NCBI GenBank assembly: GCA_951406725.2
Contig: OX597821.1
Coordinates: forward strand, 73,594,001-73,658,000
Source: Octopus vulgaris
Taxonomy: Eukaryota
Length of the DNA stretch: 64,000 nucleotides
Reading direction: 5' to 3'
Shown: one piece after another, positions 13,233 to 57,508 of the stretch
Layout: each line of letters starts with the position of its first letter
Position numbering within the stretch: the first letter of the stretch is position 1
Notes under the pieces: model-generated
Database searches by the model: none
What the model saw: only the letters and a program-made list of their open reading frames with translations
What the model was told of the DNA's origin: nothing
Made by a program: the position numbers and the translations under genes

Positions 13233-13294
13233 AACTGATACCATGGTCTCGAAATGATCGCCAAATAGGGGCCTGTTTCTCTTCAGCCGCAGTT
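13233..13294 (-). ncRNA. Degenerate type I hammerhead
   Basis: AACUG-CGG / CUGAAGA / GAAA..UUUC / GAGA (A14G) / C-CAUG-G / UA / U-CAGUU. Confidence 0.55.
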
Positions 13295-13554
13295 TGTCAG
13301 CTAACGACTGCCAAAATTTAGCCCCCTCCTCATGCCTGCAAAATTCGTTTGAAGTGACCAAACACTAAACAAACGAAATATGTGAAATTATTTGTAAGTA
13401 GATATAAGAGCGATGGCGCTATTAAAATACCATCAATACTGGCAAGCGAATATCAGCCGTACAGGCAAATCAATAAAATATATACATACAATGTAAGATA
13501 TGCACTTTTATATAGATACACACACGGGGGTACTATACACATACAGACATTTTA

Positions 13555-13820
13555 TATATACACTCACACGAGGGTACTTCATAAATATTATATATATATA
13601 CACACGAGGGTACTTCATAAATATTATATATATACTCACGAGGGTACTTCATAAATATTATATATATACACACGAGGGTACTTCATAAATATTATATATA
13701 TACACGAGGGTTCTACATACATACACACACACACACATATATATATATATATATATATATATATATATATATATACACGTGGGTACTACATGTATATATA
13801 TATACACACAAGGGTACTAC
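13555..13820. repeat. Minisatellite, ~34-38 bp unit
   Basis: Four units of (TA)n-CACGAGGGTACTTCATAAATAT plus degenerate units. Confidence 0.85.
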
Positions 13821-16204
13821 ATGTGTGTGTGTGTGTGTATATATATATATATATATATATATATATATATGCACATACACACGCATATTGCTTTTGTGAC
13901 TTTGGAGTAGTTTTAACTCTTATTTTTAGCAACAGTGGTGCTAGTCAGTACCCTCGGTCACTTTTGTGACCTCTGTTAATTTTGCCTTTAGGTTCTAATT
14001 GCTAATAAGCTACCCTTTTACTTTATATATATATATATATATATATATATATATATATATATATATATATATATACACACACACATACGATAGGCTTCCG
14101 CAGTTTCCGCCTACCAAATCCACCCGTAAGATGTTGGTCGGCCTGGGGCTATTAGTAGAAAACACTTGACTAAGGCGCCATGCAATGGGACTGAGCTGGA
14201 AACGTTGTGGTTGCAAAGTGAGCTTGTTAACCACCGGGTCATACCTGTGCCTATGTCGATGATGGCAGCGAACTGGCAGACTTGTTAGCCCACCGAACAA
14301 AATGCTTAACGGCGTTTCGTCCGGTCTTTCACGCTGTGAGTTCAAACGCCACCGACTTCGCCTTCTATCCTTTCGAGGGGTCGAGGAAATACGTATCAGC
14401 CAAGCAATTTGACTTAACCCCTACCCCTAACTTGCTAGGCTTGTGCCAAAATTTGAAACCAATATGATGGTGAAATGCAAAACCAGAAAAAAAAAGACCC
14501 CAACAACTCCATTCTTCGAATTAAAATTCTCCATAGTTCTACAGAAAGAAATTCAGCGTTGGAGGAATTGTCTTGTGGTATTAGTTTCGATTCTTAGAGC
14601 TGTCTATTCTTGGATCGTAGATCTTTTATCCGTAAACCAGTTTAGTACCATCATCTGCTCTCTTAAAAGCCTTTGGCAGTGTTCTCTATGTTGCAGGTTG
14701 TCCAGCTACATTTCCGATTTGAGGATGACATCCTCTCTCGTTCCCATTTGCACCGTAGGCATTGAACATTTGATAATGTTAAGGAGGTGGTGCAGCGAAC
14801 AAAATGCTTGGCAGCACTTCTTCCGACCCTTCACGCTCCGAGTTCAAATGACGGGGATGTTGATTTTACCTTTTCTCTTTTAAGAGTAGATAGCATAAAT
14901 ACCAGCTAAGTACTGGGGTCAACGTAATCGACTTATTCCCGCCCTTAAAATTACTGGCCTTGTACCAAAATTGGAAACCGAGAGTGCAGTTTTAGCTACT
15001 CTTTAATACAATATATATGGAAATTTAGACGGAATGGTCACAGATGGATTGTTTGAAGTGAAGCCAACTTAAGACTATATAGTAATATTCATTAACCGTA
15101 TTTAACTTACTAAAAACAACAGCCAGACCTACGTTAAATCAGATCTTGCCTTCTTAAAAGAGGAAGGACACATTCGATAATGTCGTCCTTGGTAGACATT
15201 GGCGAAAAAGAAAAATGGAAGGCTAATGGTTGTCACGTGTTTCATCATGTCTGCTCGATCAGGACTAATTTGATTAATCATCATCATCGCCACTTCCTCC
15301 CCTATCCTCCTCATCACCGCATAATAATCTTCCTCTCCTCCTCTTTATTCTCCCTACCACCACCACCCTCCCTCTCCAGCTCCTCCTCAATGAGACAAAC
15401 AAAGAAACAACCACTGCGGTCTTTAGTATGATGTGTGACACGACCAGACGTGTCAGCTGATGTGTGTGTGTGTGTGTGTGTGTGTTATTTGTCAAATGCC
15501 GCCTTACAAGCGCTACCATCATCAAGGGAGATAACACCAGCTTCCTGCGTGAGATTCTTTTATTCACTGGACATTCCAGACATGACAGAAACTGTGCTAC
15601 GTGGAGTTTGTCACATGATTCTCTTGTGTGTGTCGTCCAGGTCACGTGCCGAAGCACAATTCATGCATGTGTATTTCAATATCATGAAGGCCATAGTGTA
15701 AGGGTTGTATCACGAGTGCCGGGTTTCGAGATCAGCAGCCGAACTGTCAGAGGTCAGAGTGTTTTACGTGCTTCACAAACGTTTTCTGAGATTTTATGAA
15801 AGTCTTATATTATTATTAAATAATGTAATCGTAATAATTGTTTCATTTTAATTCCCACGAAGGTCCATTCATACGAAGAATAAAATAACGATAATAAATT
15901 CTTGAAAATATTCTCTCTTTTTACTCTTTTTCTTGTTTCAGTCATTTGACTGCGGCCATGCTGGAGCACCGCCTTTAGTCGTTAGCGCGCCGGACAAAAT
16001 GCTTAGCGACAGTTCGTTCGCCCTTATATTCTGAGTTCAAATTACACTGAGGCCAACTTTACCTTTCATCCTCTCGGTGTCGATAAAATAAATACCAGTT
16101 GAAAACTGAGGTCGATGTAGCCAATCCGGAAATTGCTGGCCTTGTGCCAAAATTTCTGACTAATATTTTGTACAACTTTATATATAATTAGTTTTCTTTA
16201 TTTC

Positions 16205-16600
16205 TACAGGAATGGTTGTGTTGCAAGTAGCTTGCTTACCAACCACATGGTTCCGGGTTCAGTCCCACTGCGTGGCATCTTTGGCGAGTGTCTTCTATTA
16301 TAGCCTCGGGCCGACCAAAGCCTTGTAGACGGAAACTGAAAGAAGCCTGCCGTGTATATATATATATATATATATATATATATATATATATATATATATA
16401 TATGTATGTTTATGTGTCTGTGGTTGTTCCCCCACCATCACTTGACAACTGATGGTGGTATGTTTACATCGCCGTAACTTAGCGGTTCGACACAACAGAC
16501 CGATAGAATAAGTACCAGGCTTATAGAGAATAAGTCCTGGCGTTGAATAAGTCCTGGTCGCAGTCAAATGACTGAAACAAGTAAAAGAATAAAAAAGAAT
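16205..16600 (+). mobile_element. SINE family B
   Basis: Collinear match. Further partial copies lie near 16715-16910, 16995-17185, 12700-12900, 14085-14250, 28855-29005 and 31130-31300. Confidence 0.8.
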
Positions 16601-17539
16601 ATATATATATATATATATATATATATATGTATATGTATATGTACATACATACATACATACATACATACATACATACATACATATATGAGTATGTGTGTTT
16701 GTGTATGTGCGCGCGCGTAACTGTGTTTGTCCACCTCCACCGTTTGGTAACCTGTACTGGCTTGTTTACGTCTCCGTGACATAGCGGCTTGGCATAAAGA
16801 CCGTTAGAATAATTCCCAGACTTACAAAAAAGGCACTGGGGCCGATTTGTTGGACTAAAACCCCTTGAAGCTGGTTGCTCAGTACCGCTGCACTCCAACG
16901 ACTGAAACAAAACAAAAACAAAGAAAAACACCAAATTCTCCGACAAACACACGAGTAAACAGTATTTTTTTGAGGAGGGGGTATATTCTTTTGCTCTTTT
17001 ATTCTTTGATTTGTTTCAGTCATTTGACTGCGGCCATGCTGGAGCACCGCCCTTTAGTCAAACAAACCGACCCCAGGCCTTATTCTTTGTGAAGCTTAGT
17101 ACTTATTCTATCGTTCTCTTTTGCCGAACCGCTAAGTTACGGGGACGTAAACACACCAGCATCGGTTGTTAAGCGGTGGTGGGAACGGACGAACGAATGA
17201 ATCGATACTAAGTATTTTTACTAATGATAATTATTTCACCAACGCTTGAAAGAAGATAATTAACATTATAGGGGTTTGAAATGAAAATTAAAGGACCAGA
17301 ATTTTGTCCTTGACTTTAACGCGTCAACCATCAAATGTTTTAAGAACAGTTTCTTGCAGAAACAGCAATCCAAAAATCTTCGGGAAGGAAGCATGAATTA
17401 TATTTGATTCTAATTTTTTTCTTGAGCCCCAGGGACTCAGATGGGGGCCACTTACTCGGTTTACGTAGCGTATAAGTAACCGAGATTATCCTCGTCCCTG
17501 AAGAGGACGCAGGTCCATCGCAGGGTTCACGGCCAGTCG

Positions 17540-56032: not shown

Positions 56033-56398
56033 AATGGCCCAGTGGTTAGGGCAGCGGATTCGCAGTCGTAGGATCGCGGTTTCGATTCCCAGACCGGGCG
56101 TTGTGAGTGTTTATTGAGCGAAAACACCTAAAGCTCCACAAGGCTCCGGCAGGGATGGTGGTGATCCCTGCTGTACTCTTTCACCACAACTTTCTCTCAC
56201 TCTTACTTCCTGTTTCTGTCGTACCTGTATTTCAAAGGGCCGGCCTGTCACTCTCTGTGTCACGCTGAATATCCCCGAGAACTACGTTAAGGGTACACGT
56301 GTCTGTGAAGTGCTCAGCCACTTACGCGTTAATTTCACGAGCAGGCTGTTCCGTTGATCGGATCAACCTCGTCGTCGTAACCGACGGAGTGCTTCCCC
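56033..56398 (+). mobile_element. tRNA-derived SINE family C
   Basis: A box TGGCCCAGTGG and B-box-like GGTTTCGATTCC. The same head occurs at 10300-10490 (+) and 9555-9835 (-), and in decayed form at 38235-38425 (-) and 44070-44260 (-). Confidence 0.82.
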
Positions 56399-56694
56399 AG
56401 TTATATATATATATATATATATATATATATATATACATACATAATATATATATATATATATATATATATATATATATATATATATATATATATAAAGTAA
56501 TACTAAGTAATTAAGGGTTTAGCAACGAATTGCCTCACCAACACACCGAATTTAGAAATAGCAGTCAAAGAGATATAGCTATTCCTTCTACTAAAAGGGG
56601 GATCTCAGTAAAAACACAGCACTTAAAAGGCAAACACAGACAGGTAAGAAAGAAAGAATGAAATGACGGCAATCCATCATGCAATTTTAAGTTA

Positions 56695-56786
56695 CCTACG
56701 GACGTACGTTTCGAGATCAAGTTTTAGGATATCATAAGAATTAGAAAATTCTACTTTACCCAGACTTCTTCTCTCATCGGCGCAGG
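56695..56786 (-). ncRNA. Inverted copy of the 57417-57508 hammerhead
   Basis: Reverse complement of 57417-57508 within the inverted arm. Confidence 0.78.
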
Positions 56787-57416
56787 ATACTACAATTGTG
56801 AATAATTGTATATTAAATTTTGAGATACTAGAATGCGTCATCTCAACTCAGTGTCAGAGCGAGCCAAAGCATGACCAGTACCACGAAATTCAAAGTTTGA
56901 ATGAAAGTTTGTGTCACCGTAACTTAAAATTGCATGATGGATTGCCGTCATTTCATTCTTTCTTTCTTACCTGTCTGTGTTTGCCTTTTAAGTGCTGTGT
57001 TTTTACTGAGATCCCCCTTTTAGTAGAAGGAATAGCTATATCTCTTTGACTGCTATTTCTAAATTCGGTGTGTTGGTGAGGCAATTCGTTGCTAAACCCT
57101 TAATTACTTAGTATTACTTAAATTTTCCTCGAATGGGGCTTTTACATACCGAAATCTACTTGGTGTAATTGATAATTATCCCTAATTAATTAATTTCACC
57201 CTTTTATTATTACTGATAACCATATTTTATCCCAGTAAATGACCACAGCATTTTGTCTTGGCTACACGCGGGTGGAAGGGGGCTGGTGACACAAACTTTC
57301 ATTCAAACTTTGAATTTCGTGGTACTGGTCATGCTTTGGCTCGCTCTGACACTGAGTTGAGATGACGCATTCTAGTATCTCAAAATTTAATATACAATTA
57401 TTCACAATTGTAGTAT

Positions 57417-57508
57417 CCTGCGCCGATGAGAGAAGAAGTCTGGGTAAAGTAGAATTTTCTAATTCTTATGATATCCTAAAACTTGATCTCGAAACGTACG
57501 TCCGTAGG
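57417..57508 (+). ncRNA. Type I hammerhead ribozyme (U4C core variant)
   Basis: Stem I CCUGCG/CGUAGG, core CCGAUGA, stem II GAGA..UCUC with structured insert, GAAA, palindromic stem III AC-GUAC-GU. Predicted cleavage after GUC at 57502. Confidence 0.8.

Follow-up and report, generated by a model that had tools for sequence, protein, structure and literature searches.

Minimal type I hammerhead motifs in a 64-kb stretch of the Octopus vulgaris genome as probable relics of Penelope-like elements

Introduction

Minimal, dimer-dependent hammerhead ribozymes have been known in the ends of Penelope-like elements (PLEs) since 2014 (Cervera and de la Pena, 2014, PMC4209133). In the pseudo-long terminal repeats (pseudo-LTRs) of metazoan PLEs they combine a CUGANGA(H) core with a G10.1-C11.1 pair, a short stem I and a palindromic or absent loop III, and they form several consensus families per genome, mostly as single truncated copies that are predicted to act as dimers, with some opposite-strand pairs lying 100–700 bp apart (PMC4209133). 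The supplement to that work gives molluscan examples from Lottia and Crassostrea, and octopus is not named in its searched part. Here, we analyse a 64,000-nucleotide stretch of Octopus vulgaris DNA (assembly GCA_951406725.2, contig OX597821.1, positions 73,594,001 to 73,658,000; hereafter the window), in which an earlier note had described about eight hammerhead loci. The motifs resemble the PLE ribozymes in all of these respects.

Cleavage by PLE minimal hammerheads is weak and confined to multimers (Cervera and de la Pena, 2014, PMC4209133; reviewed in Weinberg et al., 2019). For an anole PLE, the element's protein was reported to nick AT-rich DNA and to start copying at two internal RNA sites; the ribozyme requires the protein, insertion in vitro does not require cleavage, and RNA-seq revealed no ends at the position of cleavage (Frangieh et al., 2024, PMC11167929). 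Insertions of endonuclease-positive (EN+) PLEs such as Penelope/Poseidon and Neptune are characterised by 5' truncation, partial tandems, an inverted 5'-truncated neighbour, a tail at one end and AT-rich or (TA)n targets (PMC8557442; PMC11167929). What the PLE hammerhead does and why PLEs retain introns are both stated open questions (Frangieh et al., 2024, PMC11167929; Craig et al., 2021, PMC8557442).

PLEs make up 6.83% of the O. vulgaris genome, in 190 families of which 31 were recently active, and the words "hammerhead" and "ribozyme" do not occur in the supplement or in the covered main-text portions of the study that reported this (Bonar et al., 2026). In giant squid, 235 hammerhead-1 loci have been reported. 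No octopus count was found among the papers listed for hammerheads in octopus or cephalopods. Lunse et al. (2017) reportedly found such variants in various genomes, in numbers of the order of 150,000, and octopus may be among the species covered.

Results

The motifs exceed chance expectation as a set

The window has a GC content of 36%, with 19% simple repeat and approximately 23% interspersed repeat. All eight ranges named in the earlier note contain a hammerhead-like motif, five on the plus and three on the minus strand (13233, 41119 and 55843; loci are called by their first position). With a strict descriptor, in which a perfect hit has an intact core and no fewer than 3 bp in each of stems I and II, we found three perfect minimal type I cores (50919+, 57423+ and 56780−), compared with means of 0.01 in global and 0.02 in local dinucleotide shuffles (100 each). 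When up to one core mismatch was allowed, seven hits were observed against shuffle means of 0.28 (global) and 0.27 (local), and a scored descriptor gave seven hits at a score of at least 7, against a mean of 0.06 in 1011 local shuffles. Since both perfect and scored hits far exceed the shuffles, the eight motifs are, as a set, real and beyond chance; the comparison with dinucleotide shuffles had been named beforehand as the check.

The single loci are of uneven quality. Only two are intact (50910 and 57417, making three motifs when the inverted twin at 57417 is counted), while the other six carry one or two lesions, several of which would fit CpG loss. Passes with one mismatch were obtained for 25970 (U at position 6), 48882 (AAAAC) and 55843 (ACAU/AUU), and 13233 scored 7.8 despite GAGAC and a bulged stem I. 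With two core changes, 43866 scored 4.7, under the clear zone, and is backed by its 83% identity to 25970. The motif at 41119, which has C-A at the base of stem II, was missed by every descriptor used, so that its call rests on a long stem I and an inverted partial twin. Outside the named loci, a non-palindromic one-mismatch hit at 30219 (−) was set aside as chance-type, as were descriptor hits scoring 2.0 or less, for example at 14143 and 20338. The Rfam hammerhead families gave no match in the window at gathering thresholds, and among the matches listed by E-value (150 of 620) there was no hammerhead; these were microsatellite-driven microRNA and similar entries.

Consensus features and families

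The earlier statement that all loci share GAAAC-palindrome-GUH holds for five of the eight and fails for 13233, 48882 and 55843; its list of loop III words (CAUG, ACGU, GUAC, UA or none) was correct. Stem III words are palindromic in seven of eight loci and in six of the seven one-mismatch hits. Two further features are present that the descriptor does not demand: the G10.1-C11.1 pair of the published consensus, found in seven of eight loci, and an extra base after A9 in four, which are the four without loop III. In contrast to described PLE hammerheads, two loci have very long stem II arms (approximately 55–60 nt), and position 6 is U in one family.

That family, which we call family A, comprises 25970, 43866 and a weaker relative, 55843. 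Because these three are related, the eight loci group by sequence into six families rather than eight. In the three family A copies all 21 stem cells are paired while loop II varies, and, by eye, two copies have C-G as the outer stem I pair where the third has G-C. The U at the normally invariant position 6 is found in 25974–25980 and 43870–43876 (both +), and 55843 has A. A6C and U4C are known to reduce hammerhead activity, A6C strongly, and no test of A6U was found in the literature passages covering these two changes. Family A may be a successful family whose ribozyme is variant or dead.

Insertion anatomy points to Penelope-like elements

Ten hammerhead-bearing and related pieces, with boundaries drawn by eye and partly at microsatellite edges, cover 3,640 bp, or 5.7% of the window (Table 1). 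An inverted, 5'-truncated partner accompanies four of the eight loci (41119, 48882, 50910 and 57417), a partial tandem of the pseudo-LTR type is seen at 57417 and probably also at 13233, and a 3' tail is present on one copy only at 41119, 50910 and 57417. These tails, which measure 48 nt at 41119 and 101 and approximately 158 nt at the other two loci, in no stated order, compare with 30–40 nt in EN+ PLEs (PMC8557442; PMC11167929). Four of the eight elements have (TA)n within 30 nt on both sides and one has it on one side, against a background of 10% per side. At 13233, the direct repeats match over 81 nt at 92.6% identity, extend further with gaps and lie 477 nt apart; this arrangement could alternatively be a local duplication. 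The inverted arm at 48882 may continue to approximately 48400 as a broken reading frame. By eye, the frame at 48466–48850 (−) may resemble the start of a PLE protein.

Table 1. Hammerhead motifs, PLE-type insertions and related features in the window.
Position	Strand	Feature	Details
12918–13530	−	Partial-tandem PLE-type insertion, old	Unit ~477 nt; direct repeats 12918–~13070 and 13395–~13530 flank the hammerhead body
13233–13294	−	Decayed hammerhead	CUGAAGA 13286–13280; GAGAC for GAAAC; CAUG loop; bulged stem I; predicted cut after 13239
25905–26093	+	5'-truncated PLE end, family A	Hammerhead 25970–26005: U at core position 6, extra A after A9, loop III absent, predicted cut after 26001
30850–30982	+	Solo 3' tail of 57417 family, without hammerhead	77% to 57702–57805; same 3' end at (TA)n run
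38452–38548	+	3' piece related to 55843 element, without hammerhead	Flanked by (TA)n runs
40911–41428	.	Old head-to-head insertion in (TA)n	Arms ~78% alike; left arm (−) with 48-nt 3' tail; right arm (+) begins within the hammerhead core, ~41231
41119–41178	−	Hammerhead	Core 41162–41156; UA loop
43606–43994	+	5'-truncated PLE end, family A	Between (TA)n; hammerhead 43866–43901, U3 and U6, predicted cut after 43897
48810–48940	.	Head-to-head pair	Hammerhead 48882–48927 (+; U4C, AAAAC for GAAAC); inverted arm from its GAAAC (48876, −)
50866–51215	+	PLE-type insertion between (TA)n runs	16-nt inverted 5' piece
50910–51002	+	Intact hammerhead	CUGAAGA; long stem II; ACGU loop; predicted cut after 50992
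55748–55945	−	5'-truncated PLE end related to family A	Hammerhead 55843–55877: canonical CUGAAGA, extra A, stem III broken (G16.2 to A)
56495–56918	−	Inverted 5'-truncated copy	100% reverse complement of 57285–57708; twin core 56780–56774, predicted cut after 56701
56919–57235	+	Candidate 317-nt spliceosomal intron	Donor-like AG/GTAACT (context at 57508); branch-like CTGAT (A 57216); pyrimidine tract, AG at 57235
56919–57809	+	Young partial tandem of 589-nt non-coding unit	Repeats 56919–57220 and 57508–57809 differ at one base; ends in (TA)n
57417–57508	+	Intact hammerhead	U4C (tolerated); GUAC loop; predicted cut after 57502

The excess over shuffles, the undemanded consensus features, the inverted and tandem insertion anatomy and the (TA)n flanks together lead us to assign the motifs to PLEs. 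Very probably they are minimal type I hammerheads in the 3' pseudo-LTR ends of six PLE families, which were inserted independently, often into TA microsatellites, and have mostly decayed. Several observations weigh against this assignment. Three of the eight elements have no (TA)n at the eye-drawn boundaries. Unlike in EN+ PLEs, no PLE reverse transcriptase or GIY-YIG domain was detected in Pfam scans of 225 stop-free frames of at least 45 aa or in one upstream frame, and membership thus rests on non-coding anatomy; loss of these reading frames is expected in 5'-truncated copies. Family A shows no double change in the counted columns, a result equal to that of all 500 shuffles with only three copies to compare, and the arms at 41119 have drifted apart without compensating changes. 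Of the differences that were listed (40 of 55), nine lie within the 57417 motif and none falls at the 17 invariant positions, where approximately 1.7 would be expected by our estimate, a deficit that is not significant. Finally, the labels of the sequencing runs called "RNA?" below are guesses.

Following published PLE work, the reverse transcriptase/GIY-YIG protein of an autonomous element would nick AT-rich DNA, and copying would start at internal sites 3' of the hammerhead, giving the tails. An early stop would most often leave a short, hammerhead-bearing 3' end, to which a second, inverted and shorter complementary DNA would often be joined head to head. Within the parent RNA, pairing of two hammerheads via the palindromic stem III would lead to slow cutting, probably with help from the protein. 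The insertions would have been independent and followed by neutral decay.

Predicted folding and cleavage

Homodimer folding gave a double hammerhead, with separate stems II, shared stems I and III and an open core, for three of the eight loci (50910, 57417 and 13233) and not for the other five. Together with the consensus fit and the PLE flanks, this supports the link to PLE minimal hammerheads of the dimer type drawn in the earlier note. When the two large inverted insertions were folded as read-through RNA, none of the hammerhead bases paired inside the motif and nearly all paired with the twin; an inverted twin is thus predicted to tie up the motif in an extended duplex. Because cores are mutated, partners are absent or a twin forms such a duplex, most copies are predicted not to cut in their present places, and most are unlikely to act on host RNA today.

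A young, high-copy family with a 589-nt unit

The insertion at 56495–57809 is very young. It lies between (TA)n runs; an inverted copy comes first, and after it stand 1.5 units of a 589-nt sequence, which has a GC content of 37% and no long reading frame. This unit was found in 20 of the 24 listed sequencing runs, from nine studies; none of the listed runs is on record as RNA, and the result says nothing on expression. Four runs were compared as assembled contigs, which cannot show RNA ends. From the DNA-type run X2, 1991 contigs map to the unit, so the 57417 family is high-copy, although no copy number follows from this figure.

In this family, one contig of run X4 has 57432 G>A together with 57488 C>T, which swaps a stem II G-C pair for A-U. 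The same contig carries 36 differences in approximately 330 bases, including 57420 G>A, which turns a stem I G-U pair into A-U, and 57424 C>T, which restores the canonical U4; the X4 differences were assigned to one record (record 21) by depth. We also considered A-to-I editing of the inverted repeat, and rejected it since the "RNA?" runs showed no A>G excess over the DNA-type run. A single site, 57579 (+), is A>G in the sole covering contig of the "RNA?" run X3 and absent from X2, and may be an allele or an edit.

The family could conceivably consist of active non-LTR retrozymes, with tandem transcripts cut to 589-nt monomers that are circularised and reinserted by PLE enzymes; 13233 would perhaps be a second case. 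Non-LTR retrozymes share with the 589-nt unit a short non-coding sequence, one type I hammerhead, low GC, strong self-pairing as a circle and likely mobilisation by PLE enzymes (Cervera and de la Pena, 2020, PMC7229834; Li, Clavereau and Pollet, 2026, preprint 10.64898/2026.07.22.740005), and the published unit sizes, 51 to 972 bp, include that of the octopus unit (Li et al., 2026). The copy in the window is very young and in partial tandem, and as a circular monomer the unit folds better than 40 shuffles (z = −4.2). In addition, the tandem joint 57809–57221 is present in contigs of all three "RNA?" runs, but since the same joint exists in the DNA of the window it is not evidence of a circle. 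The summed depth of X2 drops at the ends of the unit, and the joint is not among the X2 joints listed, which suggests that most copies do not have it. The definition of a retrozyme in the preprint needs two hammerheads in tandem, whereas the locus has one per strand over 1.5 units plus an inverted piece. Only one of nine tested Xenopus dimers was cleaved (Li et al., 2026). We therefore regard active retrozymes as possible but doubtful, and as compatible with the PLE origin that we favour; the 589-nt unit itself is likely a non-autonomous, retrozyme-like derivative.

A further tandem junction in this family, of a shorter unit, is marked by an X2 joint from 57697 to 57273, which makes the 589-nt unit one of several derivatives.

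A candidate splice donor next to the predicted cut site

The forward copy of the young insertion begins exactly at GTAACT, which is preceded by AG in the second unit, and AG/GTRA occurs only once in the 589-nt unit. The donor-like site overlaps the last base of stem I (3' strand), 5 nt past the predicted cut, and a common family variant, 57510 A>G, preserves the purine at donor position +3. The repeat 56919–57220 ends 4 nt past the branch-like CTGAT and 15 nt before the pyrimidine-rich AG at 57235. Of the eight acceptors that score best, this AG is the highest to come with a branch-like word, and it has an ATG (57239) 3 nt later. The candidate intron would thus nearly equal the pseudo-LTR. A 5'-untranslated-region intron that spans the pseudo-LTR boundary is known from PLEs, where intron retention has been called unexplained (Craig et al., 2021, PMC8557442; Schostak et al., 2008); in Chlamys-3 such an intron lies across the boundary between pseudo-LTR and body, as our candidate would (PMC8557442), and in Penelope of D. 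virilis the intron's 3' end meets helix I, while it is the candidate donor that overlaps stem I in octopus.

At the 13233 element, an acceptor-like AG followed by ATG is located at 13336–13330 (−), approximately 60 nt past the upstream repeat and behind a weak pyrimidine tract; the layout resembles that of the 57417 unit.

The donor overlap may be a footprint of how PLEs keep introns. One could imagine a switch in which stem I covers the 5' splice donor, so that uncut RNA would be spliced and translated, while RNA that is cut, or left as an exon-skipping lariat, would stay unspliced and serve as insertion template, with the youngest copy recording the event. No lariat model of PLE intron retention was found in the titles and abstract openings of literature on Penelope-like introns. 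A spliced joint was not seen in contigs of the three "RNA?" runs. The arrangement concerns a single locus and was noticed after the fact, and the inverted arm begins 218 nt from the cut site. A donor directly past the cut site was also rejected as a general feature, as it was found in only one of eight loci. On balance, we consider the switch unlikely.

Other features of the window

Apart from weak zf-RVT hits, the only clear Pfam hits were two decayed mariner (Mos1-type) transposase genes, at 3698–4698 (−) and 47400–47954 (−). For the former, identity is 83% to an unnamed protein of 342 aa and 73% to one from Limulus. Non-LTR retrotransposon 3' ends with zf-RVT are found at 59144–59527 and 59990–60677 (+), with homologues in sea cucumber, sea anemone and corals; they presumably also carry a restriction-like endonuclease motif of the Dong-R4 type. 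At least two abundant families resembling short interspersed elements are present in 10–20 copies each, often split by microsatellites (e.g., 50159–50321, 50468–50653 and 49347–49523). For a frame from the commonest of these repeats, all four protein matches were predicted proteins of Octopus vulgaris or O. bimaculoides (70–90% identity), a result that marks the window as octopus DNA at the level above species. The frame upstream of 43866 gave one match with eight matched stretches, which we read as low-complexity, and no PLE domain. The hammerhead family copies had no matches in metagenome, viral and prokaryote collections.

Discussion

Two other readings of the motifs have to be considered beside the PLE origin. 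The first is that they act on host pre-mRNA, with intronic copies cleaving themselves alone or as same-strand dimers and being selected for strand. In its favour, the core is undamaged at two loci, the ACGU stem III words of 25970 and 43866 are compatible and both motifs are on one strand, and Xenopus retrozymes are depleted in introns (Li et al., 2026). However, no host exon was recognised among the 225 frames of at least 45 aa, a search that short exons could escape, and the strands are mixed, with opposite twins. Both plus-strand copies of family A have U at position 6, where A6C strongly lowers activity, and the large inverted insertions are predicted to pair with their twins. That RNA-seq showed no ends where the anole PLE is cut (Frangieh et al., 2024, PMC11167929) also speaks against it. 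This reading is very unlikely, and the earlier proposal that host introns may be littered with self-cleaving motifs is not supported: no exon was seen, six of eight loci are lesioned, single copies need a partner and twins are predicted to sequester the motif. The second reading, chance matches in AT-rich, repeat-rich DNA, has in its favour the Rfam result, the failure of 43866 and 41119 on the descriptors alone and the hit at 30219, but given the shuffle excess, the undemanded consensus features and the common insertion anatomy it is hardly credible, and is refuted for the set, surviving only for single decayed loci.

On non-coding criteria, then, the motifs appear to belong with the PLE minimal hammerheads, and are likely for the most part ordinary PLE relics rather than a new ribozyme system. 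Eight loci per 64 kb is far above the largest counts given in PMC4209133 (approximately 9,000 in Xenopus tropicalis and 4,000 in coelacanth), yet such a density is to be expected when the 5.7% PLE-type cover of the window is set beside the published 6.83%, and the known PLE load would explain it. The suggestion of a large, under-annotated radiation is plausible with respect to the ribozymes, a count of which seems unpublished, whereas PLEs are already annotated at the element level. Naive scaling to 2.8 Gb gives approximately 350,000 motifs and 90,000 intact-core loci, on the basis of one window picked for the feature; the scaled density would rank among the highest reported.

With these results, octopus joins the animals that carry many PLE hammerheads, and Rfam is shown to miss those in this window. 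If the switch proposed for the 57417 family were true, it would account for the survival of introns in PLEs across an RNA stage, and it could be tested by counting insertion ends in octopus genomes, which may contain 100,000 or more motifs. More generally, the ends of a young, high-copy family may track the cut or splice site, so that the questions of hammerhead role and intron retention would both become countable from genome sequence.

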